From: a virus
Taxonomy: Duplodnaviria > Heunggongvirae > Uroviricota > Caudoviricetes
Length of the DNA: 34,194 bases
Virus record (IMG/VR): IMGVR_UViG_2778261184_000007
Location: 1 to 34,194 of that record
Direction: 5' to 3' (one strand)
The notes below the pieces were generated by a model. The model was not told the origin of the DNA and did not search any database. It was given only the letters and a program-made list of their open reading frames with translations. This document shows, in pieces, positions 1,508 to 34,194 of this stretch. Each line of letters starts with the position of its first letter. Within the stretch, counting starts at the first letter, position 1. The position numbers were made by a program, and so were the translations under genes.

Positions 1508-1509
1508 GA

Positions 1510-5700: not shown

Positions 5701-5713
5701 CGCGGCATTTGTA

Positions 5714-6286: not shown

Positions 6287-6340
6287 GAAAAACAACCTCT
6301 TTGTTTAGTTAAAAATACATCGTTGGTATAGGTAGGGATT

Positions 6341-6366
6341 AAGACTAAAACGTTGGTTTGGGGGAA
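6341..6366. other. Invertase crossover site 1 (cix/mix-like 26-bp imperfect palindrome), nearest the invertase gene
   Basis: Bottom strand reads TTCCCCCAAACC-AA-CGTTTTAGTCTT; the AAACC..GGTTT core resembles hix/gix/cix half-sites. Confidence 0.7.
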
Positions 6367-6864: not shown

Positions 6865-6883
6865 AAACGTTGGTTTGGGGGAA
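6858..6883. other. Invertase crossover site 2
   Basis: Same half-site TTCCCCCAAACC-AA-CGTTT on bottom strand, straddling the cassette 1 stop and the cassette 2 TTG. Confidence 0.7.
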
Positions 6884-7342
6884 GGCTCTGCACTGCCCGT
6901 TGGTGTGCCCGTTCCGTGGCCCTTAGAAATACCGCCAACGGGCTGGCTGAAATGTAACGGCGCAGCATTTTCTTCTGAAATGTACCCCAGGCTGGCAAAG
7001 GCTTATCCGACCAATAAATTACCGGATTTACGCGGTGAATTTATCCGTGGCTGGGATGACGGACGGGGCGTTGATAATGGACGCAACCTACTGTCTGCGC
7101 AGTCTGACGCTATTCAGAATATAGTTGGCACTTTTGGGCGTACTCAGCTTTTTAAAGATACGCTGAATTCAGGGCCATTTAGTCAAACTGACTCTATATT
7201 ATCAGTAGGCTTACAACCAACTGAGATCATTGAAGGATATGGTGCTTCTGTATGGACATTCGACGCCTCTCGCTCAGTTCGCACAGCGTCTGAAACACGC
7301 CCCCATAACATTGCGTTTAATTACATCGTAAGGGCGGCATAA
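6875..7342 (+). CDS. Promoterless tail-fibre C-terminal tip cassette 2
   Basis: Same conserved N- and C-terminal blocks with a distinct centre (…NGRNLLSAQSDAIQNIVGTFGRTQLFKDTLNSGPFSQTDSILSVGLQPTEIIEGYGASVWTFDASRSV…). Confidence 0.75.
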   Translation: MGEGSALPVGVPVPWPLEIPPTGWLKCNGAAFSSEMYPRLAKAYPTNKLPDLRGEFIRGWDDGRGVDNGRNLLSAQSDAIQNIVGTFGRTQLFKDTLNSGPFSQTDSILSVGLQPTEIIEGYGASVWTFDASRSVRTASETRPHNIAFNYIVRAA

Positions 7343-7361
7343 AAACGTTGGTTTGGGGGAA
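7336..7361. other. Invertase crossover site 3
   Basis: TTCCCCCAAACC-AA-CGTTTTTATGCC on bottom strand. Confidence 0.7.
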
Positions 7362-7814
7362 GGCTCTGCGCTGCCCGTTGGTGTGCCCGTTCCATGGCCC
7401 TCAGCCACACCGCCAACGGGATGGCTGAAATGTAACGGCGCAGCATTTTCTTCTGAAAAGTACCCAAATCTGGCAAAGGCTTACCCTACTAATAAATTGC
7501 CGGATTTACGCGGTGAATTTATTCGTGGCTGGGATGACGGACGTGGTGTGGATGCCGGGCGACAATTATTATCTTCACAGGGGGATGCAATAAGAAATAT
7601 TGAGGGGTTCGCAGATGGCGGGATTGGCATGTCTTTTGATGCAATCAGAGGGGCTTTTTATGATGCAGGAACACGATCTGCGAGAATGCCGAATAACACA
7701 ACTGATATAGGCAAAACCGATGACCTTGGATTCGACGCCTCTCGTGTCGTGCCAACAGCTAATGAAAACCGTCCTCGTAATATTGCCTTTAATTATATTG
7801 TGAGGGCGGCATAA
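7353..7814 (+). CDS. Promoterless tail-fibre C-terminal tip cassette 3
   Basis: Conserved ends, unique centre. Confidence 0.75.
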   Translation: MGEGSALPVGVPVPWPSATPPTGWLKCNGAAFSSEKYPNLAKAYPTNKLPDLRGEFIRGWDDGRGVDAGRQLLSSQGDAIRNIEGFADGGIGMSFDAIRGAFYDAGTRSARMPNNTTDIGKTDDLGFDASRVVPTANENRPRNIAFNYIVRAA

Positions 7815-7833
7815 AAACGTTGGTTTGGGAGAA
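7808..7833. other. Invertase crossover site 4
   Basis: Same motif with one substitution in the conserved half (GGGAGAAGG instead of GGGGGAAGG). Confidence 0.65.
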
Positions 7834-8301
7834 GGCTCGGCGCTGCCCGTTGGTGTGCCTGTTCCATGGCCCTCAGCCACGCCGCCAACGGGGTGGCTGA
7901 AATGTAACGGTGCAGCATTTTCTTCTGAAATGTACCCCAATCTGGCAAAGGCCTACCCCACCAATAAATTACCGGATTTACGCGGTGAATTTATCCGTGG
8001 CTGGGATGACGGACGAGGCGTTGATGCTGGACGTGCTTTATTGAGCATTCAGACTGGGATGCTGGAAAAACATCGCCATATTGTTGTTGCCAACGATGGG
8101 TATGATTCAAAAGAGGAATGGGAACTGGCGACAATCTTCAGAAGAGCATACACGCAAGGCCGGGGGCTTGATGCTGCTGATGTCGGAGGGACTCTGATTC
8201 CATCACCAACGCTTCATTCACGAGGAAGTATTGGTAACACAGGTGGTAGTGAAACCCGCCCCCGCAATATTGCATTTAACTATATCGTGAGGGCGGCTTA
8301 G
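7825..8301 (+). CDS. Promoterless tail-fibre C-terminal tip cassette 4
   Basis: Conserved ends, unique centre; converges on the chaperone gene with a 6-bp gap. Confidence 0.75.
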   Translation: MGEGSALPVGVPVPWPSATPPTGWLKCNGAAFSSEMYPNLAKAYPTNKLPDLRGEFIRGWDDGRGVDAGRALLSIQTGMLEKHRHIVVANDGYDSKEEWELATIFRRAYTQGRGLDAADVGGTLIPSPTLHSRGSIGNTGGSETRPRNIAFNYIVRAA

Positions 8302-8307
8302 TTATAT

Positions 8308-8919
8308 TCAACTGGCTGATGCCAGTGGTATTTCCGGCAAGTTGATATCTGGTGCCATGTTTATATCCATTGCGTTCAGCGCGTCTATATAATCCAGCAC
8401 GGCATTAAGCCGGGTGGTTTCTGCCTGCGTCAACTTCCGCCCGGCCCGCAACTTCAACTGAATCAGACTTATGGAATCCATTGCCGCATCAGCCAGTGAC
8501 TGGCGCTTGGTTTCTGCCGCTTCTACTGCGGCACGATGTTGTGCCTCAGTATCTGTCACCCATTTTTCACCATCCCATTTATCGTATGGTGTTAACGGGG
8601 CGATAGTGGTTGTATTTTTCGGGTAGTCACCCAGCGCCGTGATTTCTTCGGTGTTTCCCGTGTCAGTGCTATAGACGGTTTCACCACGATGGTCTGGCGC
8701 ATACTCCCATGAATTTAAATCCTCCGAACGGCGAATAGCATAGCCAGATTTATGTGCGCCTGGGGCATCTAAACAGGAATTAGCCGGAATACCAACACCC
8801 ACAGCAAGATATTCAGTTGACTCTGAAATATATTCCCGTGTCTCACCATCATAGTTATAAACGATGATGTTTCCTGCCTGTACGGCAATAAGATCATTAT
8901 TTAATATCGCGTTATTCAT
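8308..8919 (-). CDS. Tail-fibre assembly chaperone (Tfa/U-like, 203 aa)
   Basis: N-terminal region typical of Mu/P1 U and lambda Tfa-type proteins (…YDGETREYISESTEYLAVGVGIPANS…); ATG overlaps the stop of the preceding cassette by 1 nt. Confidence 0.65.
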   Translation of the reverse strand: MNNAILNNDLIAVQAGNIIVYNYDGETREYISESTEYLAVGVGIPANSCLDAPGAHKSGYAIRRSEDLNSWEYAPDHRGETVYSTDTGNTEEITALGDYPKNTTTIAPLTPYDKWDGEKWVTDTEAQHRAAVEAAETKRQSLADAAMDSISLIQLKLRAGRKLTQAETTRLNAVLDYIDALNAMDINMAPDINLPEIPLASAS

Positions 8920-9377
8920 TATGCGGCTCTCACAATATAATTGAAGGCAATATTGCGTGGACGGGTTTCATTCCCCCCTGAGGATTCCGTTCTGTATTGA
9001 CTGGAAAATTTACCATTAATCGCCCCTCCCTGGACGGCGTTATCTGTCGACAACAGACTATCCCCCCCTCTGTCATTTGGCACCAATACCGTGTTATCCC
9101 ACGCGTCCCATGACCGAATATTATGATAATGACTTCCAGTTAACCACCCCTGTATGCTTAAGATGCCCCTTCCCGCATCCACCCCGCGCCCATCATCCCA
9201 ACCGCGAATAAATTCTCCCCGTAAATCCGGTAATTTATTAGTGGGGTAAACCTTTGCCAGATTTGGGTACTTTTCAGAAGAAAATGCTGCTCCGTTACAT
9301 TTTAGCCAGCCCGTTGGTGGTGTTTCTAAGGGCCACGGAACGGGCACGCCAACGGGCAATGCTGAGCCTTCCCCCAA
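8919..9377 (-). CDS. Promoterless tail-fibre C-terminal tip cassette 5 (minus orientation, between the expressed tip and the chaperone)
   Basis: Begins at the TTG within crossover site 5; conserved N block, unique centre (…WLTGSHYHNIRSWDAWDNTVLVPNDRGGDS…), conserved RPRNIAFNYIVRAA end. Confidence 0.75.
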   Translation of the reverse strand: MGEGSALPVGVPVPWPLETPPTGWLKCNGAAFSSEKYPNLAKVYPTNKLPDLRGEFIRGWDDGRGVDAGRGILSIQGWLTGSHYHNIRSWDAWDNTVLVPNDRGGDSLLSTDNAVQGGAINGKFSSQYRTESSGGNETRPRNIAFNYIVRAA

Positions 9378-9394
9378 ACCAACGTTTCTATGCC
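9369..9394. other. Invertase crossover site 5 (inverted relative to sites 1-4)
   Basis: Top strand TTCCCCCAAACC-AA-CGTTTCTATGCC. Confidence 0.7.
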
Positions 9395-11694
9395 GCTCTT
9401 ACGATGTAATTAAATGCAATATTACGCGGACGAGCTGATACATAAGCCCACCAGTCATATTTTTGGGCACCTTTACTGGATGCATCAAATATCCACTTTT
9501 TGCCATTTATGGCCCCCCATTGATTAGAGGTTAAAGTGTCACCAAATCCGTATTGTGGTGAGCTGAGTGAACTGATATCCCCAGTATCATTATCATCAAA
9601 ACCGGAGACGATAGTGCCTTCCTGAAATGAAAGTATCTCTCGTCCTGCATCAATACCTCGTCCGTCATCCCAGCCACGGATAAATTCGCCCCGTAAATCC
9701 GGTAATTTATTGGTCGGATAAGCCTTTGCCAGTCTGGGGTACATTTCAGAAGAAAATGCTGCTCCGTTACATTTCAGCCATCCCGTTGGCGGTGTGGCTG
9801 AGGGCCATGGAACGGGCACACCAACGGGCAGCGCAGAGCCTTCCCCCAAACCAAGGTAATCAAGAACGCCCTGAGTGCTGGTTTTACCAAGAATGGCACG
9901 CCCAACACTTGTCAACGCGGTTAACGCGGCACGATCTTCCCCTGTAAAATATGGGAGTTTATCTGCTGATGTAGCAAGCTCTGCCAGCGCCGTCAGGGTG
10001 GCATCCTTCGGTTGCTTACCCGCAAGCGCGTTAGTCATGGTGGTCGCAAAATTCGGGTCGTTGCCCAGCGCCGCCGCTAACTCGTTCAGCGTATTCAGTG
10101 CGTCAGGCGACGAGTCTACAAGTGCGGCAATCGCGGCCATAACGAAAGCCGTGCTTGCGATCTGGGTATTATTAGTCCCCTGTGGCGCTGTTGGTGTTGT
10201 TGGCGTTCCGGTCAGTGCCGGGCTGTTTAATGGTGCTTTCTTGTTCGTTTCATCCATTACCGCCTTAACAGCTTTTGGTGTCGCTGCCAGCGTTTCAGAC
10301 GTGCTGTTCGTGGCGCTACTAAGCTGAACTATCCCTTTTTGTGCCGTCGTAGCGTCCTGTGCTGTGTATTTGCCATTAGCAAGATCATACGCTGCCTTAA
10401 CTGCCTTAGGCGTTGCTGCAAGAGTTTCAGACGAGCTGTTGATGGCACTACTAAGTTGTACAATGCCGCTCTGAGTGAGGCTGGCTGCTGGTACGTCGGT
10501 AATCTGGCTCCAAGGGTGGTTATGGCTGGCGTTGGCACACTCTGCAAAGCGAGCACTTAACCAGGAACTCAACCAACCGTCTCCCCACTGACTGCCATAC
10601 ACATCACCACCGGTGCTATAACGTGCATCCCCTATCAGAAGCTCTTTTAATGAGGTAATACTTCTTTCCGTGAAAAGGAACACACGCTGGCCGTTGGCGA
10701 ACACGGACAATGCGCCGTCTCCTTCATGTTTAATTCCGGTATCGTCATCGCCCAGCGTCAGAGAGTTCCCCCCCAGTCTGTTGTTGGTATTGATGCCGAA
10801 TGCAGAGGTCTGCGGCAGATTAAGTTTACCTGTCATAGTGTCGCCATCTTTGGCAACTTTTTCTCCAATCAGGCGAGTCACTGTCGCGGAAAAGTTCGGA
10901 TCATTACCAAGCGCGGCGGCCAGTTCGTTCAGAGTGTTAAGTGCGTCAGGCGATGAGTCTACAAGTTCAGCAATCGCAGCCATAACGAAAGCTGTGCTTG
11001 CGATCTGAGTGTTATTCGTTCCCTTAGTCGCCGTTGGTGCTGTTGGCGTCCCTGTCAGATTCGGGCTGTTGATCGGGGCTTTTGTATCAACCAAATCATG
11101 GAGAGTTTTGACAGCCAGAGGTGTAGCCGCTTTTCTTTCTTCTGTACTGCTTATTTCATTAGAGAATTCGACACCAACAGCACGGTTAACCCGGTATTTA
11201 AGCACAATCATTTCTTTAGTCACAGCCGTTGCGCCGCTAGGCACGATAACTCGACATAATTCAATTTGATTCTGCCCAATAGTATTGTCCGTACGCGCGT
11301 AAATTCTTGCAGCACTGACAGAAGATGCGCTATCTACCTGTGTCGTTTTTACACCATGTTCAAAATTGGCTTCCAGCACAATAATGTTGGTAGCCCCTGC
11401 CTTTACCGAGACAGTCACATCTTCTATTTGCTGAACGGATATCTGAACATTATTTACATCTACTGAAGCAGCCCCTTTACCTTCTGAGTTTTCAGAAGTT
11501 ATACGGACACTCAACCCTGTGCCGGGAACCGGTTCAAATCCACAGTAAAAGCCAGGCAAAACAATATTTTTAAGTTTTCTGTTAAGAGCCGAACTACTAT
11601 AGAGTTCGAAATATTGAACATCAGCAAGCAACGGCTGTGAGACACCAGAGGATAGTGTCATTATGTTGTTCGTTTTATCAGCACCCATAATCAA
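9388..11694 (-). CDS. Tail fibre protein (S-like, 768 aa): constant N-terminal part fused to the currently expressed variable tip
   Basis: Repeated fibre motifs (GIVQLSS..NS.SETLAATPKAVKA three times; NTLNELAAALGNDPNF twice); C-terminal 150 aa carry the same conserved blocks as the cassettes; ATGA overlap with the upstream R-like gene. Confidence 0.85.
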   Translation of the reverse strand: MIMGADKTNNIMTLSSGVSQPLLADVQYFELYSSSALNRKLKNIVLPGFYCGFEPVPGTGLSVRITSENSEGKGAASVDVNNVQISVQQIEDVTVSVKAGATNIIVLEANFEHGVKTTQVDSASSVSAARIYARTDNTIGQNQIELCRVIVPSGATAVTKEMIVLKYRVNRAVGVEFSNEISSTEERKAATPLAVKTLHDLVDTKAPINSPNLTGTPTAPTATKGTNNTQIASTAFVMAAIAELVDSSPDALNTLNELAAALGNDPNFSATVTRLIGEKVAKDGDTMTGKLNLPQTSAFGINTNNRLGGNSLTLGDDDTGIKHEGDGALSVFANGQRVFLFTERSITSLKELLIGDARYSTGGDVYGSQWGDGWLSSWLSARFAECANASHNHPWSQITDVPAASLTQSGIVQLSSAINSSSETLAATPKAVKAAYDLANGKYTAQDATTAQKGIVQLSSATNSTSETLAATPKAVKAVMDETNKKAPLNSPALTGTPTTPTAPQGTNNTQIASTAFVMAAIAALVDSSPDALNTLNELAAALGNDPNFATTMTNALAGKQPKDATLTALAELATSADKLPYFTGEDRAALTALTSVGRAILGKTSTQGVLDYLGLGEGSALPVGVPVPWPSATPPTGWLKCNGAAFSSEMYPRLAKAYPTNKLPDLRGEFIRGWDDGRGIDAGREILSFQEGTIVSGFDDNDTGDISSLSSPQYGFGDTLTSNQWGAINGKKWIFDASSKGAQKYDWWAYVSARPRNIAFNYIVRAA
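9841..9866. other. Invertase crossover site 6, inside the expressed tail-fibre gene at the constant/variable junction
   Basis: Top strand TTCCCCCAAACC-AA-GGTAATCAAGAA: conserved half-site intact, other half diverged because it is constrained by coding sequence (…DYLGLGEGS…). Confidence 0.65.
10050..10225. repeat. Intragenic direct repeat copy A within the tail-fibre gene (about 175 bp)
   Basis: Roughly 85% identical to 10890-11065 by eye; encodes the duplicated …NTQIASTAFVMAAIA.LVDSSPDALNTLNELAAALGNDPNF… block. Confidence 0.7.
10890..11065. repeat. Intragenic direct repeat copy B within the tail-fibre gene
   Basis: Partner of the 10050-10225 copy. Confidence 0.7.
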
Positions 11695-19760: not shown

Positions 19761-19877
19761 GTGTAAGATTTGCCCTCAATTAAATACGATCGGTGTAAGA
19801 TTTGCCCTCAAAAGGTGTAAGATTTGCCCTCAAAAGGTGTAGTAATTGCCCTCAAAGTGATGTAAAAATTGCCCTCA
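19761..19877 (+). repeat. Five direct iterons (GTGTAAGATTTGCCCTCAA and variants), 22-bp phased after the first pair
   Basis: Copies at 19761, 19793, 19815, 19837, 19859; an inverted copy at 19621-19640. Confidence 0.85.
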
Positions 19878-19901
19878 CCATTTGAAGGATCACACAGGGT
19901 T

Positions 19902-20657
19902 ATGAACAGAGCGGAATTAACAGCAAAAGCAGTCAGCCTGATTGAGTCAGCGACACCTATTAGTCGTAGTTTGGCACAAGCCAATGAGATCACGGAGGCT
20001 GCTTATCACCTGACTCGCGACCAAAAGCGACTGTTGTTTATTGTGGTGGGAAGACTTCGCTATGCTTCTAAGGATGGCGTTCTTGGTTCAGGTGCCTGTG
20101 AGTTGACGGTCAACGAATATGCAGAGATGTATAATTTGCCCTCTGCTGAAGCCAGCAAGGATATTCGTAAGGCCATTTCAGGGCTTAGCGAGAAGAAAGT
20201 TACGATATATAACCCTGATGAATCGACCGAATCAGAAGACAGTTATGAGTCTTATCCTTGGATGATTAAGGATGCCTATTCACCACGGCGCGGGACTTAC
20301 ATTATTCATCTTAATCCATATCTCATGCCGTTTTTTACTCTGCTTGATAAGAGATTCACAAGGCTGAATTTTACCGAAGTATCTCGCCTTACAAATCCTT
20401 ATTCTATGCGGCTTTATGAGTCCTTATGCCAGTACAGGAAGGATGATGGAAGCGGCTTTGCCATACTTGGCGTCGAATGGATGCGGGAGCGTTATGGGTT
20501 ACCAAAAAGCTATCAGCGGTATGCCGAATTTAAGAGAAGTTTTTTAACGAAGGCTGTAGCAGAGATTGAAAAAAATACAAAAATGAAAATAGTCTTCTCA
20601 GAGGTGACGGAAGGCGGCAAAGTTACCAGGATAAAATTTACCTATCAGCAGTCTTAA
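19902..20657 (+). CDS. Iteron-binding replication initiator, Rep_3 (pSC101 RepA-like) family, about 251 aa from ATG 19902
   Basis: Motifs matching pSC101 RepA as recalled: …ELTVNEYAEMYNL…VTIYNP… and …NPYSMRLYESL…; flanked by iterons. The ORF track starts 33 nt earlier inside the iteron array. Confidence 0.8.
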   Translation: MNRAELTAKAVSLIESATPISRSLAQANEITEAAYHLTRDQKRLLFIVVGRLRYASKDGVLGSGACELTVNEYAEMYNLPSAEASKDIRKAISGLSEKKVTIYNPDESTESEDSYESYPWMIKDAYSPRRGTYIIHLNPYLMPFFTLLDKRFTRLNFTEVSRLTNPYSMRLYESLCQYRKDDGSGFAILGVEWMRERYGLPKSYQRYAEFKRSFLTKAVAEIEKNTKMKIVFSEVTEGGKVTRIKFTYQQS

Positions 20658-25945: not shown

Positions 25946-26012
25946 GCTGGTTCTTATCCTCTAAAGCGAGAGAACGAGGCAAGGCTACCCACGGTTAATG
26001 GGCAGCCTCTGA

Positions 26013-26291
26013 TCAGGATTCGCTTACCGTGAAGTTGTCGCCTACGGTTACTTCTTTCGTAGTTGGTTCAACACTGACGGCGCTTACGCTTTTAGGTGCC
26101 TCCCTAACAGTGACTGTGCACTGTGCTGTTTTATTGCCGTCATTTGTTTTGATTGTCAGCACTGCCTGCCCGGCCTTAAGAGCGGTACATGTAGTGCCAT
26201 CAACCTGGACAATTTCAGGGTGATCTGACTCAACAGTGAAAGATTTGTCTGTTGCGTCAGATGGCGTGATAGTTACTTGAATGTTTGCCAT
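26013..26291 (-). CDS. Small Ig-like (Big_2-type) domain protein (92 aa)
   Basis: Beta-rich motif …VTITPSDAT…KAGQAVLTIKTNDGNKTAQCTVTV… typical of bacterial Ig-like domains found in phage decoration/tail proteins. Confidence 0.5.
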   Translation of the reverse strand: MANIQVTITPSDATDKSFTVESDHPEIVQVDGTTCTALKAGQAVLTIKTNDGNKTAQCTVTVREAPKSVSAVSVEPTTKEVTVGDNFTVSES

Positions 26292-26304
26292 TCTTTTCTC
26301 CTGA

Positions 26305-26334
26305 ACGCCCCTTATTCAGGGGCGTGTTTTTGCC
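26305..26334 (+). terminator. Intrinsic-terminator-like hairpin with T-run on the + strand (ACGCCCCT-TATTC-AGGGGCGT-GTTTTTG)
   Basis: Sits 4 nt upstream of the SD of the minus-strand Big_2 gene; would stop antisense (+) transcription entering the structural operon. Confidence 0.4.
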
Positions 26335-26438
26335 TTACTTCTGCTTTGTTTTTTTCTGTGCCTTTGAAGTGTTCGCGGCGATAGTTTCACCTTCATCTAC
26401 GTCAAGTGACGTTGGTGATACCGACACGTTCGCCACCA

Positions 26439-28136
26439 TCACTTTTTTTCGTTAACCTTGCCTGTCAGCATGTCGATAGCACCTTCTTTGGCGCGAGTCA
26501 GACGCAGGCGGGTGAAGTAGTTTTCACCGTTGCGAGGATGTACTTCGTTGATGGCACTGCCCCAGAGGGTGGTACGGTTAACGAGAGACGGATTGGTTTC
26601 GTGCACGTAAGGGATTGCTGGGACTGCATCACCAGCAATCAGACCGGCTTTACCGATGCCTTCGCCACGCCCATAGAAGAAGATGTCATCCAGCCCGAAG
26701 TCATATCCCTGTGCCTGGAATTGCTCACAGACAGGTTGCGGCACTTCGTAAATACGAATCGTGCCAAACAGGGTGCCGATGTACTGTACATACGGCGACT
26801 GAACGTAACCTGGTGCGATCTGGAAGTGCTGTGGAGGCAGAGAGCGCAGGAAGTTCGCGGCGTCACCACCAGCAAAGCCGCCACGAATACCCGTTGTCAG
26901 GGTACGATTTGCCATTTCTTGAGACAGAGCGTTTACTACGTGACGCAGGAGGCCGACCCAGGACTCATAGTTTTGAGCTTCCGGCAGAGCCACATCAAAT
27001 TCACGACCATAAACGGTATGGAATACCAGGGTGCGCAGACGCATGATGTCGGTTTCATGGGAGATCCAGTTACGCATCGCGGAGAACTGAAGTGCCGCTA
27101 ATTCAAGGCCGTGCTCACGGCTTAAATCGGATGCGGACATTACCGTGTGTTCGGAAGCAATTACGTACTGGGACGGACGAACTTCGTACTTACGCATAGC
27201 CTGGTTGATCACAGGAATCAGGCTTGGATTGCGCTCGATGTTAATTTCGACCTGAACAGCAATTTCAGTACCTTCTGGCGGAGCCTGGGTAAATGTAATG
27301 TCAATGACACCAGTGTCATAGGCAACTTTGGCAGTCGCTGAGAAAGCATTACCTTTGCTGTCTTTAGCATTGAAATAAAGGTTGCCATCGCCGTCGTCAA
27401 CTTTGGACGGTTTGCGGTTGATCAGCAGTTTGTTATAACCAGCGCGAAGCGGGCAGGATTGTCCCTCAAAATTTTGGATGTCGAACTGGAAGGTTTTGGT
27501 GCTGCCATCCCCTTTAGTGGAAAGGGTATACAGGCGCTTCATTTGAGAATAAACACCAGCTGACTGCATATTCAGTTCGTCACCTTGTTTGAAGGTGCCG
27601 AATTTTGTGCCTGCTACGTTGACCAGTTCATAAATATTTGACTCGTCACGATCACAAGGAACAAAAGTACAGGCATCACTGGTAGCAGCGCCCAGAGAGG
27701 CAGGCAGTATTAGTGCAGCATATTGAGCAACTTTCATTACGCCGTCAGAGCTACGCATTGATTGCGCGACAGACTCAAACATTGCCTTACCCGTGCCTTC
27801 ATGGGTATCACTGGCACATTCAGTCATCAGGCGTTCAAGAGCCATGTGTGCGTTCGCCAGGATGTCACTTGCCGGGTAATGACCATGTTGACGTTTATAC
27901 TCATGCAGAGACATAGCCCACCCACCAGTGATCTGACGAGCGACCTCTGGATTTACGCCTTCAAACATAGGCACTTTCTGGATTGCTTTATCCAGGTTTT
28001 CCATCATTACTGCCTGGTCAGCAATCATGTTGCCTGCTGCATCGGTGGTCGGATCGACGGTCATAGCCATGACGCTTGCCGCCCGATTCATAATCTCGCG
28101 CTCGCGATCACGAGCTGGCTGAATGTTTTTATTCAC
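26439..28136 (-). CDS. Large virion structural protein (565 aa), candidate major head protein (gene 23-position)
   Basis: First gene after a divergent AT-rich promoter region; size fits a capsid precursor with an N-terminal delta region; no alignment done. Confidence 0.45.
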   Translation of the reverse strand: MNKNIQPARDREREIMNRAASVMAMTVDPTTDAAGNMIADQAVMMENLDKAIQKVPMFEGVNPEVARQITGGWAMSLHEYKRQHGHYPASDILANAHMALERLMTECASDTHEGTGKAMFESVAQSMRSSDGVMKVAQYAALILPASLGAATSDACTFVPCDRDESNIYELVNVAGTKFGTFKQGDELNMQSAGVYSQMKRLYTLSTKGDGSTKTFQFDIQNFEGQSCPLRAGYNKLLINRKPSKVDDGDGNLYFNAKDSKGNAFSATAKVAYDTGVIDITFTQAPPEGTEIAVQVEINIERNPSLIPVINQAMRKYEVRPSQYVIASEHTVMSASDLSREHGLELAALQFSAMRNWISHETDIMRLRTLVFHTVYGREFDVALPEAQNYESWVGLLRHVVNALSQEMANRTLTTGIRGGFAGGDAANFLRSLPPQHFQIAPGYVQSPYVQYIGTLFGTIRIYEVPQPVCEQFQAQGYDFGLDDIFFYGRGEGIGKAGLIAGDAVPAIPYVHETNPSLVNRTTLWGSAINEVHPRNGENYFTRLRLTRAKEGAIDMLTGKVNEKK

Positions 28137-28294
28137 GGTTAAGCCCTAAATTCGGGCGCGGCGTGAAGGTTCTTTTGACGGGCTAACAATACCTACTTTG
28201 TGATTTAGTCAATAGGTTTAGTAAAATAAAATATATTAACACTCATGTTGTTATGTGATTTAATTTTAGTTTTCTAACACAAAACATTAGAGTT

Positions 28295-28687
28295 ATGGCG
28301 TATCGAATCTTTGTTTCGTATAAAAATGGCGCTAAGAGCCACTCTCTGAACACAACAAGTCGCTTTCTTGTTGAGGCGCAGTTGGCATCAATTCTTGCCG
28401 AAAGTGAGATACTCTCGCTCGCTGAACGGATCGTTATCCAGTTTTCTGGTAGAGATATACTCAATGTCCCCGCCCTCACCCCGGCATCCGAAGTTATGGA
28501 ATCAATTAAATGGCCCGTATGCGGATGTCCTGCCAGGGTTGAAGAGCCGGTAACTGCAACGCTCTACATGCCGAAAGCTGTAAGAGATTGGCTTGCTATG
28601 GTTGGCAATGGGAAAGTCAGTGCTGGACTTCGCAAGTTAATTGAAATGGCAGATATTCCTGAGTTAAAAAATGCATGGCGACAATGA
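28295..28687 (+). CDS. Hypothetical 130-aa protein, first gene of a rightward two-gene accessory operon
   Basis: Preceded by a very AT-rich region (28200-28290); no recognisable family. Confidence 0.5.
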   Translation: MAYRIFVSYKNGAKSHSLNTTSRFLVEAQLASILAESEILSLAERIVIQFSGRDILNVPALTPASEVMESIKWPVCGCPARVEEPVTATLYMPKAVRDWLAMVGNGKVSAGLRKLIEMADIPELKNAWRQ

Positions 28688-28703
28688 GTAAACAAGGGAC
28701 AAA

Positions 28704-29162
28704 ATGAGTCACGTTAACCCATCAAAAACACAATATCGCTTAATGCTGGCGATCGCGTCAGCTATACCAACCAGCCTGAATCCCCCGACAGGCTATCCCG
28801 CTGTTGTTGATGATTGTTTTCAGTATTACGGAGAAGACATCCTGAGCCAGTCCAAAGCGCTCAAGCAGTTATGTAAGGCAGGTATTCTTCACTGTATCGG
28901 AGATCCGGACGATTTTGTTGTTATGCTGGCGGATCGTGACTCTTTTCTACTGTCCTGGAAAGCCGGTGCGCGCGAAGCACGTTTGGGGAATGGTATTGGT
29001 TACATAGACTATAGTGATTGTCCGCTGGCATTTGCTGGTGGATATATGCATTGGCATGAGCGAAATAGAGGCCGTCAGCGTCAGTATCGCTTGAGTGACT
29101 TTAACGTCTGTCACGGTTTCGAAGAAGCTGACAGCCAGGACATCTGGCTTCAGGAGCCTTGA
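28704..29162 (+). CDS. Hypothetical 152-aa protein, second gene of the accessory operon
   Basis: SD AAGGGA upstream of ATG; 16-nt spacing from the upstream gene; Cys/His-containing (…DCFQYY…LHCIGDPDD…YSDCPLAFAGGYMHWHERNRG…CHGF…). Confidence 0.5.
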   Translation: MSHVNPSKTQYRLMLAIASAIPTSLNPPTGYPAVVDDCFQYYGEDILSQSKALKQLCKAGILHCIGDPDDFVVMLADRDSFLLSWKAGAREARLGNGIGYIDYSDCPLAFAGGYMHWHERNRGRQRQYRLSDFNVCHGFEEADSQDIWLQEP

Positions 29163-29482
29163 TCCCCCTTCCCTTCCCAAATCTCCCTGTTTCTTTGGTT
29201 ATTCAGTGCGTTTCGTTGGTTGCATTCGTCGATCGTGCTGAATAACTGTTCAGCGTATGTCGGATACTTGTTTAACAGCACTGGCGTGTCCTCTGGCACT
29301 AAACAAGGGGAGTAATCAATCAGATTTGCCTGCGGCTTGCTGGTGGCTTCTACGGTAATTTTCACTGGCACGCTGGTTGATGGCTTTTGCCCGTTCCCGC
29401 TGCATCCTGATAACGTCATCAGGCACACGCACATCGTTAATCCCAGCACGGCGCAACGCATTTTCAAGGCGAGTGATTTCAT
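29150..29482 (-). CDS. Outer-membrane spanin (o-spanin, Rz1-like lipoprotein, 110 aa)
   Basis: Signal peptide with lipobox LSGC (MKSLALKMRCAVLGLTMCVCLMTLSGC); starts inside the i-spanin gene in another frame and extends beyond it (overlapped architecture); SD GAGAGGAA. Confidence 0.7.
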   Translation of the reverse strand: MKSLALKMRCAVLGLTMCVCLMTLSGCSGNGQKPSTSVPVKITVEATSKPQANLIDYSPCLVPEDTPVLLNKYPTYAEQLFSTIDECNQRNALNNQRNREIWEGKGDQGS

Positions 29483-29789
29483 TCTGGCTTTCCTCTCGTT
29501 GTTTGATTAGGTTGGCATTCAGTTCTGCTGTTTTGCGCTGGTACTCCTTTTCCAGTGCTTTAATTCTTTCGTTTTCGGTCAGCATGGCTGAGCGAGCGTT
29601 CTCACTTAACTGTAATGCGGTAGAAAGCGTGTTGTTCGTGCTTTCCAGTTGTGATTTTGAGTCTTCAAGCGATCGGACATACCTGATGTGTTCGATAACT
29701 GCCGTCGTTGTTCGGTAAATTCCAGAAATGGCTAAAAGCGCAATTACAATCAAAATTATCTTTTTCAAAACCATCCTCTCCAGGTTCAT
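29316..29789 (-). CDS. Inner-membrane spanin (i-spanin, Rz-like, 157 aa)
   Basis: N-terminal TM helix (KKIILIVIALLAISGIY) followed by a long coiled-coil periplasmic domain. Confidence 0.7.
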   Translation of the reverse strand: MNLERMVLKKIILIVIALLAISGIYRTTTAVIEHIRYVRSLEDSKSQLESTNNTLSTALQLSENARSAMLTENERIKALEKEYQRKTAELNANLIKQREESQNEITRLENALRRAGINDVRVPDDVIRMQRERAKAINQRASENYRRSHQQAAGKSD

Positions 29790-29844
29790 TTTTGGTGTTA
29801 AACATGTACCAATTTACATCCTTTTGTGTGCCTAAGTGGTGTTT

Positions 29845-30654
29845 CTATGGTTCCTTTTTGGTGTTCTTTTGGAGCGCATCGATAACGCCTTGTGGCATGA
29901 TTAAACTGATTGCCGGACTCATTACTGCATCATCCAGTAGAGAACCAGTTAACGTGATGGCGACAGCGTTCTCTAAACCTTTGGTTGCCTGAGTGGTTGA
30001 CGTTTTAATGCGACCTGTAAGGGCTACGACACCCTCACTTGCTGAGTTAATTTCGGAGAGTAAAACTTCGGCGGCTGTCACTGCTTCCCGTAAAGCATCA
30101 ATTTCATCCTGAGTAATGACTGGAGCCTGAGCGCCCCCAGCACCACCCTGTCCACCATTGCTTTCACCACCACCAGCACTTCCGGCAGCTTCAATTTTTG
30201 CGTTAATGGCGTTCATGGCGGTTTTCAGAGCATCAAGTTTTAGCGCCGTCAATGCGTCCGTTAGAGATTGCGGAATGGAAACATTCCCCATTCCCTCAAC
30301 AAGGGCGAAAGCAGGTATGGGGGTCAGCTCGTTACCTTTTGCGTAGCATTCCCAGCCAATCTTCATCTGTAACAGCTCTGATGGCTTGGTGTATGGGGAA
30401 AGAGAATCAGCCAGTGATGAAGACGCTTTGCTGGCCTCATTGAGCTGTTCAGAAAAGCCAAGCAATTGAGTAGTCCAGGCCGAAACAGAATCAGGATAGG
30501 TTTTATCGGCGTGAACTATTCCCTGTATGGCGCTGGCGAGCGATGAGGCTTTTACAGAAGCTGCCCGGCTTATGGTTATAGATTCTGGTGTAGAGATACC
30601 GGCATCTGACAGAATTTTGAAGGCTTTAACTTCACCTATTGAATCAAGCATTAT
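29845..30654 (-). CDS. 269-aa Ser/Ala/Gly-rich protein translationally coupled to the PAAR-like gene
   Basis: ATGA overlap with the upstream gene stop; internal Gly-rich linker GSAGGGESNGGQGGAGGAQAP. The ORF track extends upstream on an alternative start. Confidence 0.5.
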   Translation of the reverse strand: MMLDSIGEVKAFKILSDAGISTPESITISRAASVKASSLASAIQGIVHADKTYPDSVSAWTTQLLGFSEQLNEASKASSSLADSLSPYTKPSELLQMKIGWECYAKGNELTPIPAFALVEGMGNVSIPQSLTDALTALKLDALKTAMNAINAKIEAAGSAGGGESNGGQGGAGGAQAPVITQDEIDALREAVTAAEVLLSEINSASEGVVALTGRIKTSTTQATKGLENAVAITLTGSLLDDAVMSPAISLIMPQGVIDALQKNTKKEP

Positions 30655-30935
30655 GCAACCTGAAAAATATCCTCGCCGTTGGCGATAACAGAACCACAAG
30701 AAAGCGGATCGCCTACACAGACAACTCCCTTTCCACCTATCGAAAACCATACTCGCGTCGATACAGCTGCCCCTGGATGTGCACTGTTACCGTCAGTGTG
30801 ACTGGGAAACATGGCACCATCTACAACAACTGGCTTACCGTTAACGGTGAACCAGGGAACGGTTTCAGCTACCAGTCGCGGCGGAAATCCTCCGTGACCA
30901 GAACAAAGGGTGTCGCTGGTGGCTATTGCGCTCAT
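30651..30935 (-). CDS. PAAR-like spike-tip domain protein (94 aa)
   Basis: Three-repeat pattern reminiscent of PAAR proteins: …CSGHGGFPP…FTVNGKPVVVDGAMFPSH…GVVCVGDPLSCGSVIANGEDIF…. Confidence 0.55.
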   Translation of the reverse strand: MSAIATSDTLCSGHGGFPPRLVAETVPWFTVNGKPVVVDGAMFPSHTDGNSAHPGAAVSTRVWFSIGGKGVVCVGDPLSCGSVIANGEDIFQVA

Positions 30936-30979
30936 TCTTCATCTCCTGGTTATCCTCCTATTGTCATCACTTTGTTATT

Positions 30980-31176
30980 TCGTCATTCAAACTGAGAGTT
31001 AAATTTCGGAATATTTTTGTATTCTCAATTCATTCTCAAATAAATCTCACTGTCAGACCATCATTCATTTGGTGATTAAGATATTCTCAAAATGAACTCA
31101 ATAATCACTCTTTTTTATCTCTTTTGGTGTGGATTTTTGGTTGCTTCTCTTTTAAAATTGCATTTTGATTCTCAAA
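30980..31176. repeat. Centromere-like repeat region upstream of parM (parC-type)
   Basis: Repeated ATTCTCAA(A) units at 31021, 31032, 31083, 31168 and TCATTCA variants in an AT-rich divergent promoter region. Confidence 0.5.
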
Positions 31177-31201
31177 TGTGTCTCAGAAGTGGAGCAAGAA
31201 G

Positions 31202-32158
31202 ATGCGCATTTTTATCGATGATGGTTCAACCAATATCAAAATGCTGTGGGAGCACGACGGGGAAACTCGCACTCACATCAGCCCTAACAGCTTTAAGCGC
31301 GGATGGTCAGCAACATTTGGTGCGGGCAAGCCGTTTAACTATGTCATTGACGACGAAAAGTATTCGTATGATTTGATCTCGCCAGATGTTCTGCCGACGA
31401 ATAACGTGGAATGGCAATACAGCCCGCTTAACGTCCTGGCTGTTCACCATGCCCTGCTGACAAGTGGCATTGAGCCGCAGGAAGTAGAAATTGTGGTCAC
31501 GCTGCCTCTGGCGGAGTTTTACGACGACGACGCGCAATACAATCTCGATAACATCGAGCGCAAGAAAGCCAGCCTTATGCGCCCCGTCACGCTGAATAAA
31601 GGCAATGTGTTCACGATTAAGAAAGTTACGGTACGCCCGGAGTCTATTCCGGCAGGAATTGGCCTGTGCGACAATCTGAACCCTGCCCATTCTGTTCTTA
31701 TCGTCGATTTGGGTGGAACTACCCTTGATGTTTCAATGGTCGCCGGGCAAATGACGGCAGTTTCCCGTGTTTTTGGCGATTCGAATCTTGGCGTCTCTCT
31801 GGTTACCAGGGAAGTAAGGCAAGCACTTGCCAGAGCCAATACCGAAACGTCAAATTACAATGTCGATCAGCTCATTATTAACCGCCACGATGAAGATTAT
31901 CTGAACGACAATATCAATGACCCATCAGCGGTTGGTGATGTGAAAAAGGCCATTGCCGCAAGCATTGACCGTCTGCGTACCCGCGTTCTTGATGTGATTG
32001 GCGACTTTAAAGGATATACGCATGTCATGGTGATCGGTGGTGGCGCACCGCTGGTGGCAGATGCAATTCGCGAGCAAGTTAATATTCGTGATGACCGTTT
32101 CTTCGTGGCGGATGACCCGCAACTTGCTCTTGTTCATGGCCTGAAAGCAATCGGTTAA
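31202..32158 (+). CDS. parM: Actin-like plasmid segregation ATPase ParM/StbA (318 aa from ATG)
   Basis: N-terminus MRIFIDDGSTNIKMLW…HISPNSFK…, …NVEWQYSPLNVLAVHHALLTSG… and DLGGTTLD match the R1/R100 ParM/StbA pattern; SD GGAG 7 nt upstream. Confidence 0.85.
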   Translation: MRIFIDDGSTNIKMLWEHDGETRTHISPNSFKRGWSATFGAGKPFNYVIDDEKYSYDLISPDVLPTNNVEWQYSPLNVLAVHHALLTSGIEPQEVEIVVTLPLAEFYDDDAQYNLDNIERKKASLMRPVTLNKGNVFTIKKVTVRPESIPAGIGLCDNLNPAHSVLIVDLGGTTLDVSMVAGQMTAVSRVFGDSNLGVSLVTREVRQALARANTETSNYNVDQLIINRHDEDYLNDNINDPSAVGDVKKAIAASIDRLRTRVLDVIGDFKGYTHVMVIGGGAPLVADAIREQVNIRDDRFFVADDPQLALVHGLKAIG

Positions 32159-32165
32159 CGAGGTA

Positions 32166-32510
32166 ATGTCCATGTCTCAGGAACGTAAGAAAGTGATGAT
32201 TTATCTTCGCCCAGAGGCTTATGCCAATGAAAAGGCGGCGAGCGAGAAGATAAAAAAACATAGCGATATGGCAAGAACCGCATTGTTGGCAGGGCTTGCG
32301 CTGGGAGAAGTCGATAGCAGGCTTCCAGGATTACTGGCTTCCCTGCTGACCGAAGACAATAACCCGGAGCTGATCCGAAAAATGCTGGCATCCTTCCTGG
32401 AACTACCAGCTGCGGTTGAGGAGCGCCCTGCCTCCATTGAGCCAGTGAAGGAGCAAGTTGTTGCCAAAAGCGCGTCGGCGCGCAATCTGGCTGACTCTCT
32501 ACCTGATTGA
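32166..32510 (+). CDS. parR: ParR/StbB-like centromere-binding adaptor (114 aa)
   Basis: Directly downstream of parM; …RTALLAGLALGE… resembles the ParR helix. Confidence 0.6.
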   Translation: MSMSQERKKVMIYLRPEAYANEKAASEKIKKHSDMARTALLAGLALGEVDSRLPGLLASLLTEDNNPELIRKMLASFLELPAAVEERPASIEPVKEQVVAKSASARNLADSLPD

Positions 32511-32528
32511 CAGAAGATGTGCTGGTTT

Positions 32529-32554
32529 AAGGCTGCAAATTGCAGCCTTTTTTA
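32529..32554 (+). terminator. Rho-independent terminator after parR
   Basis: GGCTGC-AAATT-GCAGCC followed by TTTTTTA. Confidence 0.7.
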
Positions 32555-32583
32555 TGCATTAATGGTGTCTAATTGGTGTTAAT

Positions 32584-32764
32584 CTGGAACCAGTTAGGTG
32601 CTGTTATGGTGTAATTTTGTATCTGGTTCCAATTTGGGGCTGATTTCGTGTTAAATAGGATGCAATATAAGGTGTATTTGGTCTGATTGATGTTATACTT
32701 TGCCAAACATTCATGACTCCATTATAGAGCCTGTCCCGCATCAAAAAGGCTCTTATCTGGAACC
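32584..32764. repeat. Operator/centromere-like repeats upstream of the ParA-type gene
   Basis: CTGGAACC at 32584 and 32757 and the inverted CTGGTTCC at 32623, interspersed with GGTGT repeats. Confidence 0.45.
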
Positions 32765-32797
32765 GTTTTGATACCAAAATCACACCGAGGAACGGAT

Positions 32798-33439
32798 ATG
32801 ATTATATTGGTAGCCAGCCAAAAAGGTGGCTGTGGCAAATCAACCACCAGCGTAAATATTTGTGCGGAGCTTGCCCGCGCAAATAAGGACGTAGTTCTAC
32901 TTGATGCAGATAAGCAAGGAACATCTGCCCGTTGGGCATCGGACCGTAATGCGGCAGAGGTTTCTCCAGTAATTCATTGCGTCCAGAAGTTTGGGAATAT
33001 TCGTGAAACACTTCTTGATCTGGACAAGCGTTATGAATTTGTGGTTGTTGATACCGCTGGTCGTGATAGCAAAGAAATGCGCACCGGTATTACTGCGGCG
33101 GATGTTTTGCTTGTTCCATTCAGGCCATCTCAGCCAGATTTAGACACTCTGGCGCATTTTGTTGAAGTCTTTGAAGAGGCTTTGGATCTGATGCCTAATC
33201 CTAGCATTAAGGCGTGCGCAGTCTTAACAATGGCCCCATCCAATCCGGTTGTGAATGAAGCCAATGAGGCCAAAGAGTACCTGGCTGAATATCCGCAACT
33301 GAAGTTGCTGAAAACCATCATTCGCGATCGCAAGGTTTACCGCGATTGTATGGCTGAAGGGAAGGGCGTTGTTGAGATGGACAACGGGAAAGCTAAAGGT
33401 GAAATCCAGATGTTGGTTAAGGAGTTATTAAGTGATTAA
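32798..33439 (+). CDS. Small Walker-type partition ATPase (ParA/ParF-like, 213 aa from ATG)
   Basis: Deviant Walker A KGGCGKST near the N-terminus; size typical of type Ib ParA; SD GAGG 7 nt upstream. The ORF track adds 10 codons upstream. Confidence 0.85.
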   Translation: MIILVASQKGGCGKSTTSVNICAELARANKDVVLLDADKQGTSARWASDRNAAEVSPVIHCVQKFGNIRETLLDLDKRYEFVVVDTAGRDSKEMRTGITAADVLLVPFRPSQPDLDTLAHFVEVFEEALDLMPNPSIKACAVLTMAPSNPVVNEANEAKEYLAEYPQLKLLKTIIRDRKVYRDCMAEGKGVVEMDNGKAKGEIQMLVKELLSD

Positions 33440-33719
33440 GCCTCGTAAATCGGTAAAAGCCCCCGAAGTAAAAGACCTCGATCTTGAACGCCGAATTGAG
33501 GCTTTTGCCAGCAAAGCTGATTTGGTGCCGGGTGAGCAACCAGAAGACAACAAAGTGCTCGATAAGGACGCCCCACGTGATTTTAAATCCATTCGTGTTG
33601 GCTTCAATGAATACGAGTACCAGGTACTTGATGCGTTAAGCAAAAAGCATAATCGCAGCAAATTGAATATGATCCGCCATGCTATCCTCATGTTAGCGGA
33701 GTCTGAGGAAGCAAAATAA
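33432..33719 (+). CDS. Small ribbon-helix-helix-type partner protein (ParG-like, 95 aa, GTG start)
   Basis: Overlaps the parA stop; C-terminal …VGFNEYEYQVLDALSKKHNRSKLNMIRHAILMLAE… looks like an RHH DNA-binding domain; SD AAGGAG. Confidence 0.5.
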   Translation: MIKPRKSVKAPEVKDLDLERRIEAFASKADLVPGEQPEDNKVLDKDAPRDFKSIRVGFNEYEYQVLDALSKKHNRSKLNMIRHAILMLAESEEAK

Positions 33720-33760
33720 AGTCTTTCAGGTTGGTTTTAGAACTTAAAAAGTTTTGAACC

Positions 33761-33833
33761 AAAGGTGCACCAATACACCACTAATTTGGTGCACTTTTAC
33801 ATCCTTTTTTGGTACCAATTGTGCACCATTTGT
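33761..33833. repeat. Cluster of GGTGCACC-type palindromes downstream of the partition genes
   Basis: AAAGGTGCACCAA, TTTGGTGCACTTTT, TTGGTACCAATTGTGCACCATTTG; function unknown. Confidence 0.4.
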
Positions 33834-33988
33834 CATTAATTTACTTATGCGCAAAAGTGGGCTTCATGAAAAAGCTCATTATTGAAATAACGATAGAAAG
33901 CAATTTCTAATCAACTAGTGGTTGTCAGCCTATTCGGCTTATAAGATCATACGCTGTTATACGTTGTTTACGCTTTGAGGAATCCACA

Positions 33989-34194
33989 ATGAGTGAGGCA
34001 GAAGCCCGCCCGACTAACTTCATTCGTCAGATCATCGATGAAGATCTGGCCAGTGGTAAGCACACCACAGTACATACCCGTTTCCCGCCGGAACCAAATG
34101 GCTATCTGCATATTGGTCATGCGAAATCTATCTGCCTGAACTTCGGGATCGCCCAGGACTATAAAGGCCAGTGCAACCTGCGTTTCGACGACAC
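33989..34194 (+). CDS. glnS: Glutaminyl-tRNA synthetase, 5' partial (first 68 codons; runs off the window)
   Basis: Translation [68 protein letters not shown] matches the enterobacterial GlnRS N-terminus including the class I HIGH motif; SD GAGG upstream. Confidence 0.9.

Follow-up and report, generated by a model that had tools for sequence, protein, structure and literature searches.

Partition modules and the start of glnS

The window, i.e., the whole stretch of 34,194 nucleotides that was analyzed, closes with two partition systems followed by the 5' part of the gene for a glutaminyl-tRNA synthetase (glnS), and all of these genes lie on the plus strand. The first system is of type II and comprises an actin-like ParM/StbA partition ATPase (31202..32158; Pfam StbA_N with 1.8e-69 and ParM C-terminal domain with 7e-55) and a ParR/StbB adaptor (32172..32510; Pfam Plasmid_stab_B with 3.5e-11), behind which a terminator-like hairpin is present (32529-32549). 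In the related phage D6, orf58 is annotated as a StbA-type protein. The second system starts with a plus-strand array of TGGTGY boxes (32560..32700) that is a candidate centromere or operator in the parC1 position. Its GGTG boxes are located at intergenic offsets 54, 65, 87, 98 and 161, with a spacing of ~11 or 22 bp, and equivalent upstream arrays occur in four other par variants. The array precedes the gene for a small, ParF-like Walker-type ParA of 213 amino acids (32798..33439; Pfam AAA_31, MipZ and CbiA). This protein fits a type Ib partition ATPase in its deviant Walker A motif, its size class (~200-220 amino acids) and its lack of an N-terminal DNA-binding domain, and its best PDB match is ParF of TP228 (4dzz, 3e-18), over the full length. 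Its score against the NCBIfam ParA_partition profile is 157.8 bits and does not reach the equivalog cut-off (180), by which the protein is classed as a relative rather than a curated equivalog.

The parA stop codon is overlapped by an ORF of 95 amino acids (33432..33719), which is the last partition gene of the first-pass annotation, corresponds to D6 orf61 and keeps this position in all par variants. Searches of Pfam, NCBIfam and the PDB returned no match for it. Its AF2 single-sequence model (pLDDT 58) has two C-terminal helices after a possible strand and would be compatible, at low confidence, with a ribbon-helix-helix fold. The ORF is presumed to encode the centromere-binding partner of ParA.

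After the stop of this ORF at 33719, a spacer of 269 bp leads to the glnS start codon (33989-33991), one base before the position implied by the first-pass annotation. The earlier observation, namely a glnS N-terminus with its own Shine-Dalgarno sequence about 270 bp past the last partition gene, is thus borne out; the Shine-Dalgarno motif GAGG is found at 33977-33980, 8 nt ahead of the ATG. The window holds 68 complete codons of the gene (33989..34194) and ends inside codon 69. This part already encodes the HIGH motif of class I aminoacyl-tRNA synthetases (LHIGHAKS, at ~34106-34129).

The spacer contains a cluster of boxes of the types GGTGCACC, GGTACC and TGTGCACC (33752..33835, no strand assigned), located 3' of the par operon in the parC2 position. 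The cluster of GGTGCACC-type palindromes noticed in the first reading is real: one exact copy is present at 33764-33771, and variants matching seven of the eight positions occur at 33788 and 33820. Allowing at most one mismatch, there are 10 such sites in the 34-kb window, three of them within 64 bp, where ~0.02 would be expected, so the clustering is not due to chance. Two further observations assign the palindromes to the par module. The stretch 33752-33835 diverges along with the par genes, with 80-82% identity in the related plasmids L006 and L007 (whose ParA proteins are 78-83% identical), while the identity jumps from 33867 onward (92-100% over 33867-34016). Moreover, similar boxes are found 3' of orf61 in every par variant, including those of plasmids without glnS, where they are of the type GGTGY/RCACC. 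On this comparison, the palindromes are read as part of the partition module, unrelated to the glnS junction, and not as att sites. As five par variants have both an upstream and a downstream array, the most economical interpretation would be a type Ib partition locus with putative adaptor-binding arrays on both sides of the operon, in which the GGTGCACC-type palindromes form the second putative box array for the partition adaptor protein. The boxes that flank this operon lend themselves to a simple binding assay.

Context of the junction in phage D6 and related plasmids

The adjacency of phage-plasmid DNA and a housekeeping gene had suggested three explanations in the first-pass annotation, i.e., chromosomal integration of a P1-type element, capture of a chromosomal segment by the plasmid, or an assembly chimera. 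The label of a P1-type element stands in so far as the window belongs to the P1/D6 group, but it needs refinement: based on collinear nucleotide similarity, the window is part of a D6-like phage-plasmid. Its identity to Escherichia phage D6 (MF356679) is 96.5-98.6%, the tail-fibre inversion region excepted. Positions 1-5576 match D6 at 96.5% and positions 11042-34194 at 98.5%; the stretch from 26000 to 34194 corresponds to D6 51938-60130 with 98.0% identity over the full length. Only the tail-fibre inversion region (5577-11041) is without a D6 match, and apart from it the window is collinear with the 26.3-60.1 kb region of D6. Across this region, the D6 annotation comprises ddrB/ddrA/darA, lydAB, cin, tail fibres, baseplate, sit, a Rep3-type repA (in the window, a Rep3-type initiator at 19869-20657), tail tube and sheath, capsid, StbA/StbB, the small ParA, orf61 and then orf62. 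The immunity and lytic-replication genes of D6 (genome of ~91 kb) are located elsewhere, beyond the counterpart of the window, in agreement with the earlier suspicion that these genes, which were not seen, could simply lie outside it. A tRNA scan of the window found no tRNA genes, hence no tRNA-Gln partner is encoded there.

The terminal 8 kb of the window are found, to an extent of 80% or more, in 110 plasmid records, mostly of ~90 kb and non-mobilizable, with Escherichia, Salmonella, Shigella, Klebsiella, Enterobacter and Citrobacter as host genera. A query of the par module with its spacer (32520-33900), free of glnS, detects 101 carriers among the 5426 complete genomes of E. coli, in all cases on a plasmid (~75-130 kb) and never on a chromosome. 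Judged by these records, the element type is maintained extrachromosomally, with its own Rep and partition genes.

The glnS junction itself recurs, with 99.9% identity, in six or more closed circular plasmids of E. coli. The query of the par-glnS junction is covered to 80% or more by 75 records from this species, and the same junction is found in phage D6 and in plasmids of Salmonella, Shigella and E. fergusonii. In D6, orf62 is annotated as a 553-aa 'glutaminyl-tRNA synthetase, similar to E. coli GlnS'. Past the junction, a full-length glnS (553 aa) follows in D6 and in more than 100 circular plasmids with closed sequences. One of these is the E. coli plasmid NZ_CP069886 (hereafter L002; 91.6 kb), where the gene measures 1662 nt, as it does in D6, and the 206 nt of glnS in the window are identical to the start of the full-length gene of L002. 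At 48 bp past glnS, D6 and L002 carry dmt on the opposite strand, followed by rdgC/hrdC, baseplate and tape measure genes. The gene order is parA - orf61 - glnS - dmt, with the glnS-dmt side seen in D6, L002, L006, L007 and L094. As relatives are 99.9-100% identical over the junction, glnS is probably of full length in the present molecule as well.

These data bear directly on the assembly chimera, in which a phage-plasmid contig would have been joined erroneously to a chromosomal contig. That a housekeeping gene on a phage is unusual speaks for it, and nothing further does. An identical junction in many independently closed circular replicons from four hosts (E. coli, Salmonella, Shigella and E. 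fergusonii), and in phage D6, which was sequenced from virions, leads us to reject it; we regard the chance that it applies as negligible. The presence of glnS in D6-type elements is, in fact, already known, as orf62 of D6 has been published (PMC6799933). PMC6799933, a population study, describes glnS in D6-like genomes as a cargo gene or moron, with reference to the genome paper on D6 (Gilcrease & Casjens 2018, Virology). What appeared to be a prophage-chromosome junction or a misassembly is thus a documented trait of D6-like elements, and the main value of the present analysis in this respect is negative, with no anomaly left.

Boundaries and history of the captured cassette

A BLAST comparison with the nagE-glnS-chiP region of E. 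coli K-12 delimits the chromosomal part. The first-pass annotation had proposed comparing the spacer with the native sequence upstream of glnS, and this locates the edge: homology starts at window position 33901, 88 bp upstream of the ATG, runs at 94-97% identity and, in the full-length plasmid gene, stops 7 nt before the K-12 stop codon. The captured native upstream region (33901..33988, plus strand) includes, besides the Shine-Dalgarno motif, a promoter with the same sequence as in K-12 (TTGTCA-17 nt-GATCAT, 33922-33950), the -10 hexamer of which contains a Dam site (GATC, 33945-33948). Dam methylation represses glnS transcription, according to PMC12369378, citing Plumbridge & Soll 1987. Homology to the K-12 glnS locus from 33901 through the gene, with phage genes resuming afterwards, supports the capture of a chromosomal segment among the three explanations given above.

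The same boundaries count against integration, in which a P1/D6-like element would sit beside the host's own glnS and the window end would be a prophage-chromosome junction. A segment of ~1.75 kb of glnS plus 88 bp of upstream sequence, 94-97% identical to the E. coli chromosome, could indeed support RecA-mediated integration, and the mosaic alleles described below show that plasmid and chromosome recombine. Nonetheless, the upstream neighbor nagE and its terminator are absent, homology ends at -88, and phage genes resume 48 bp past glnS in all relatives. The 5' end of glnS in the window is moreover a plasmid-specific allele, with no differences to L002 over 206 nt, two to D6 and five or six to E. 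coli chromosomes. Since the par module was located on plasmids in 101 out of 101 cases, at no chromosomal place among the 5426 complete E. coli genomes, and since phage genes follow glnS, chromosomal integration is rejected; we consider it highly improbable. The captured segment is by far the best-supported reading: with high confidence, the start of glnS in the window is the start of a complete gene inside a circular element, with the type Ib par operon on one side and dmt on the other, and carried there as a captured moron.

The 3' end of the cassette is less straightforward. The plasmid gene ends in ...WAKLG*, the chromosomal glnS in ...WAKVGE*. It is followed by a terminator hairpin, AAACGCCGC-tact-GCGGCGTTTTTT, and the same stem is present at the same distance from the stop codon in chromosomes of Citrobacter, Enterobacter, Kluyvera, Salmonella and Atlantibacter. 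Instead of such a hairpin, E. coli K-12 and E. ruysiae, the latter being the only entry of the genus Escherichia among the chromosomal matches listed in the contig scan, have a REP-type repeat 3' of glnS. That the E. coli flank is a repeat is confirmed by its occurrence in ~39 copies per genome. The donor would then be a chromosome of the Escherichia lineage in which the ancestral terminator was preserved (E. albertii, E. fergusonii and E. marmotae being possible candidates); otherwise, a different history would apply to the 3' end. Alternatively, the hairpin could be a terminator of the plasmid backbone that resembles the native glnS terminator by chance. Short repeats on both sides (CATGAAAAAG and TCATTATTGMAAT) make the exact right-hand boundary ambiguous.

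On the left-hand side, the segment 33855..33900 (no strand assigned) appears to be backbone-derived spacer and a possible relic of the par/dmt intergenic terminator, a reading that is suggestive only. Within it, AAAAGCTCATTAT resembles the ascending hairpin arm AAAAGCCCCATAT of the glnS-less plasmid L004, and this likeness of the left flank to the orf61-dmt hairpin arm is clearer in the E. fergusonii plasmid than in the window. The cassette is bracketed by a direct repeat, TCATTATTG[A/C]AAT, of which 12 out of 13 positions agree. The left copy, TCATTATTGAAAT, is found at 33876-33888 and the right copy, TCATTATTGCAAT, just past the glnS terminator, inside the 3' end of dmt. In addition, the 10-nt sequence CATGAAAAAG is present on both sides. 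The left copy of the 13-mer is poorly conserved in the E. fergusonii lineage, and the probability of such a repeat arising by chance is ~0.03 (a rough estimate). A search for att sites or target-site duplications at the cassette borders yielded only these kinds of short, ambiguous repeats, and neither an integrase nor an IS element is adjacent to the cassette. The flanking repeats may hint at the insertion route, suggestively rather than decisively.

Related plasmids without glnS provide a view of the presumptive insertion point. Among the 101 E. coli plasmids that have the par module, 20 or more are devoid of glnS (101 par places versus at most 81 plasmid glnS places). For instance, orf61 is separated from dmt by only 135-145 bp in NZ_CP098883 and NZ_CP028585, and this short spacer contains GGTGY/RCACC boxes and a GCCCC hairpin terminator. 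While PMC6799933 describes glnS as present in all D6-like genomes, this universality is not upheld, at the level of gene presence, in the larger set of 101 plasmids. The maintenance of at least 20 related plasmids without glnS implies that the gene is dispensable for plasmid maintenance. We propose that a chromosomal segment of ~1.8 kb from a bacterium of the Escherichia lineage would have been captured once, long ago, into the par-dmt intergenic terminator region. It would consist of 88 bp of native upstream sequence (with the Dam-sensitive sigma-70 promoter and the ribosome binding site), the coding sequence and an enterobacterial glnS-type terminator.

Once captured, the gene seems to have been kept functional. 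The plasmid GlnRS differs from that of K-12 at 4-5 of 553 positions (99% protein identity), retains the HIGH and VMSKR motifs, and, in the case of L002, scores 1067 bits against TIGR00440 (cut-off 425.8). Among four plasmid alleles, pairwise dS is 0.03-0.17 and dN/dS is 0.02-0.05, a range as found between chromosomal orthologues, with 12-55 synonymous versus 2-5 non-synonymous differences. These ratios argue for strong purifying selection while the gene resided on plasmids. Together with the 99% identity to E. coli GlnRS, they make aminoacylation activity likely. A short non-functional fragment or a decaying pseudogene, which the first-pass annotation had named as an outcome that would undermine its reading, might be suspected because only 68 codons lie inside the window and the neighboring dmt is flagged as a pseudogene by PGAP in many such plasmids. 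Yet, an open gene of 553-554 codons is present in each of the five relatives studied in detail, the catalytic motifs are intact and the differences are overwhelmingly synonymous. Decay of the gene is therefore very improbable, and an intact glnS under selection is the preferred reading.

The age and origin of the plasmid alleles differ along the gene. In a tree of the first 600 nt, they form one clade, the sister group of E. coli plus E. ruysiae. Of 18 fixed differences between plasmid and E. coli alleles, 10 show the outgroup state in the plasmid, and each of the 60 best matches to the first 450 nt in the 5426 complete genomes of E. coli is a record of plasmid size. For the 3' 750 nt, the plasmid alleles are nested within E. 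coli, so that the 5' and 3' tree topologies are incongruent. The D6 allele groups there with K-12 and O157, with 7 differences in the 3' 750 nt versus 29 in the first 600 nt. It is a mosaic of plasmid-type (1-820) and K-12/O157-type (1020-1584) sequence, with a maximum chi-square on informative sites of 30-33 (permutation p = 0.0002). From these alignments, the 5' third of plasmid glnS is seen as a plasmid-specific lineage outside E. coli diversity, and the 3' parts as mosaic with chromosomal alleles. Over the whole gene, L002 and D6 differ at 39 positions.

A D6-like plasmid of E. fergusonii adds a further element. It has the same junctions and, compared with L002, its neighboring genes have diverged to a dS of 0.9-3.8, but its glnS to a dS of only 0.24. 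With a glnS dS so far below that of its neighbors, one capture followed by vertical descent is an incomplete account, and lateral spread or gene conversion must be added. The data point to one old capture, after which the cassette would have undergone gene conversion with chromosomal alleles of its hosts, spread laterally among lineages, or both. Two other candidates for additional events were discarded. The Salmonella plasmid pSa1423-90k, with 90% glnS identity an apparent Salmonella/E. coli mosaic, proved to be an assembly full of indels, with 222 gap openings over 6.4 kb, and the Klebsiella 'plasmid' NZ_OP378648, an apparent independent capture, shows the chromosomal synteny nagA-nagB-nagE-glnS-chiP-fur.

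The mosaic structure also raises the question of whether glnS serves the element mainly as a patch of chromosomal homology, for transient integration, allele exchange or marker mobilization, rather than as an enzyme. The significant mosaicism of the D6 allele, the incongruent trees and a dS far below that of the flanking genes are in line with such a use. However, a homology patch does not need an intact reading frame, so a dN/dS of 0.02-0.05 is not what it predicts, and no integrated form was encountered in the 5426 genomes. We therefore judge it to be quite unlikely and continue with glnS as a selected gene that recombines. A more elaborate version of this history is tentative, with a probability somewhat short of even. 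Repeated gene conversion, with the chromosomal glnS of one host after another, might keep the plasmid gene 'Escherichia-like', the 5' third being an old lineage that predates the E. coli radiation, and ~1.7 kb at 96-97% identity might act as a standing recombination bridge from the phage-plasmid to the chromosome. In the same scenario, the Dam-sensitive promoter beside a phage adenine methylase might let GlnRS expression follow the methylation state of the incoming or replicating phage DNA.

The cassette boundaries, the origin of the terminator, the mosaic evolution, the glnS-less relatives and the par-box arrays are incremental additions to a known feature. In the literature accessible to us, we found no earlier report of a cassette start ~88 bp upstream with the native Dam-sensitive promoter, of the native-type terminator of plasmid glnS, of its strong purifying selection and mosaic 5'/3' history, or of the existence of glnS-less relatives.

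Possible roles of plasmid glnS and comparison with known systems

With its native promoter and terminator, plasmid glnS is independent of the phage operons. In the plasmid prophage, transcription would start from the gene's own promoter, so that a lysogen would gain a second copy of GlnRS and a doubled glnS gene dosage. Expression may rise while the GATC of the -10 hexamer is unmethylated, e.g., just after infection or during rapid replication. A full-length glnS locus of the chromosomal type is present in 5424 of the 5426 complete E. coli genomes, from which it follows that the ~80 strains hosting a plasmid with glnS have retained their own gene; loss of the chromosomal gene by these hosts is thereby ruled out at the level of gene presence. 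Because around one fifth of the related plasmids lack glnS and the hosts keep their own copy, an essential role is disfavored. Our best guess is that the lysogen or the phage would benefit through dosage or fitness rather than through an essential function. Candidate values are lysogen fitness, support of phage protein synthesis, or a host dependence as for a plasmid-borne cysS (see below). In our ranking, a moron acting through dosage or fitness comes first, ahead of addiction. For research on phage-plasmids and morons, the finer anatomy has a modest interest and frames testable questions about the reason for which an essential translation gene is retained in duplicate by a temperate phage.

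Compared with orf62 of D6 and glnS of D6-like plasmid prophages such as pYU39_89, the window has the same gene in the same position and nothing essential differs, although its allele is nearer to those of NZ_CP069886 and NZ_CP047663 than to that of D6 itself. With the P1 plasmid prophage, the element shares its lifestyle and, to a large extent, its structural, anti-restriction, lysis and cin/tail-fibre modules. Accordingly, D6 genes are annotated via their P1 homologues ('similar to P1 gene ...'), while orf62 (glnS) is without such a note. The partition equipment is different: the window element has ParMR and a small ParF-like ParA, while the large type Ia ParA/ParB of P1 is absent, and the D6 record describes orf60 only as 'similar to the C-terminal 1/3 of P1 ParA'. 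Centromere repeats that flank a type Ib operon on either side are known from pB171 par2 (parC1 and parC2) and TP228 parFGH. The D6-like locus is similar to these in its small ParF-like ATPase, its adaptor ORF of ~90 amino acids and its short box arrays 5' and 3' of the operon, but differs in the boxes themselves (TGGTGY and GGTGCACC) and in an adaptor that matches no known family.

For glnS, the closest parallel raised so far concerns another synthetase gene. In Salmonella Typhimurium ST313 strain D23580, cysS is located on plasmid pBT1, and this copy reportedly substitutes for the chromosomal one, the expression of which is strongly reduced (Canals et al. 2019, discussed in PMC6799933). By analogy, PMC6799933 raises the possibility that glnS is a plasmid-maintenance (addiction) device, in which the host would depend on the plasmid copy once the chromosomal one is silenced or lost. 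The retention of glnS over a long evolutionary time under purifying selection agrees with this. On the other hand, the near-universal chromosomal glnS counters loss of the host copy (though not its silencing), the glnS-less plasmids with the same par module are maintained nonetheless, and D6-like elements already carry toxin-antitoxin systems (PMC6799933). Addiction is thus unlikely, if less so than the other alternatives weighed above, and a dosage or fitness effect is preferred. The two cases are alike in that a housekeeping aminoacyl-tRNA synthetase gene has been duplicated onto an enterobacterial extrachromosomal replicon. Unlike cysS on pBT1, the glnS of D6-like elements is dispensable for related plasmids, and the chromosomal glnS is retained in essentially all genomes.

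glnS and its neighbours on chromosomes and plasmids

In E. coli, the chromosomal counterpart of the glutaminyl-tRNA synthetase gene captured by the element is close to universal. Across 5426 complete E. coli genomes, 5427-5428 chromosomal glnS places were counted, with a few chromosomes carrying more than one. Only two of the 5426 genomes are without a full-length locus of the chromosomal type, and a glnS match was wholly absent by megablast in one of the 5426. Upstream of chromosomal glnS, nagE is found in K-12, O157 and strain 1190, while in APEC O1 a DeoR/GlpR regulator gene occupies this side (positions 1-300 of the chromosomal locus L090). The upstream neighbourhood of chromosomal glnS is therefore polymorphic within E. 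coli. A further glnS-bearing record is filed as a Klebsiella pneumoniae plasmid (pKLP00155_2, NZ_OP378648.1; 316 kb). Its gene order, nagA-nagB-nagE-glnS-chiP-chiQ-fur-fldA, is that of the chromosome, and the record appears to be a piece of a chromosome, or else a capture of chromosomal DNA on a very large scale.

On the element itself, the spacer between the partition genes and glnS contains a run of six T at 33806-33811, compared to five in phage D6 and in all four aligned plasmids. Either this additional T reflects a true indel of one base, or the homopolymer was misread in sequencing. On the other side of glnS, relatives carry the phage methylase gene dmt. In every RefSeq D6-like plasmid inspected, the NCBI annotation pipeline PGAP labels this adenine methylase as 'incomplete; missing N-terminus', as in the closed plasmid L002 (NZ_CP069886; 8299-9138), in L004, which is devoid of glnS (5827-6645), and in L005 (3083-3922). 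At the dmt position, the D6 record lists two separate methylase ORFs, orf63 (adenine) and orf64 (cytosine).

The invertible tail-fibre region

At the megablast level, no D6 match is present for the cin-invertible tail-fibre region (5577-11041), and both of its flanks match D6 at 96.5-98.5%. Within this region lie four tandem paralogous ORFs of 153-168 amino acids on the + strand (6358-6864, 6875-7342, 7353-7814 and 7825-8301). All four encode a Phage Tail Collar domain at the N-terminus (PF07484; E-values from 1e-14 to 6e-16). The four tail-collar ORFs may provide alternative receptor-binding tips.

Replication and partition modules

A Rep3-type plasmid replication initiator, corresponding to D6 orf42, is encoded at 19869-20657 (Rep3_N, 3e-29; Rep3_C, 1e-15). 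Its gene is surrounded by tail morphogenesis genes and lies on the opposite strand. Two unlike partition systems adjoin each other within 31202-33719: a type II operon (ParM/ParR, or StbA/StbB) and a type Ib operon consisting of a small ParA and a 95-aa ORF. Among plasmids that are alike elsewhere, the ParA module is strongly mosaic (78-100% identity), which may reflect incompatibility-driven diversification. The par region is also adjoined by a homologue of P1 upfC (30651-30935, - strand), annotated in RefSeq plasmids as a PAAR domain-containing protein; a PAAR domain is unusual for a P1-type phage gene in this position.
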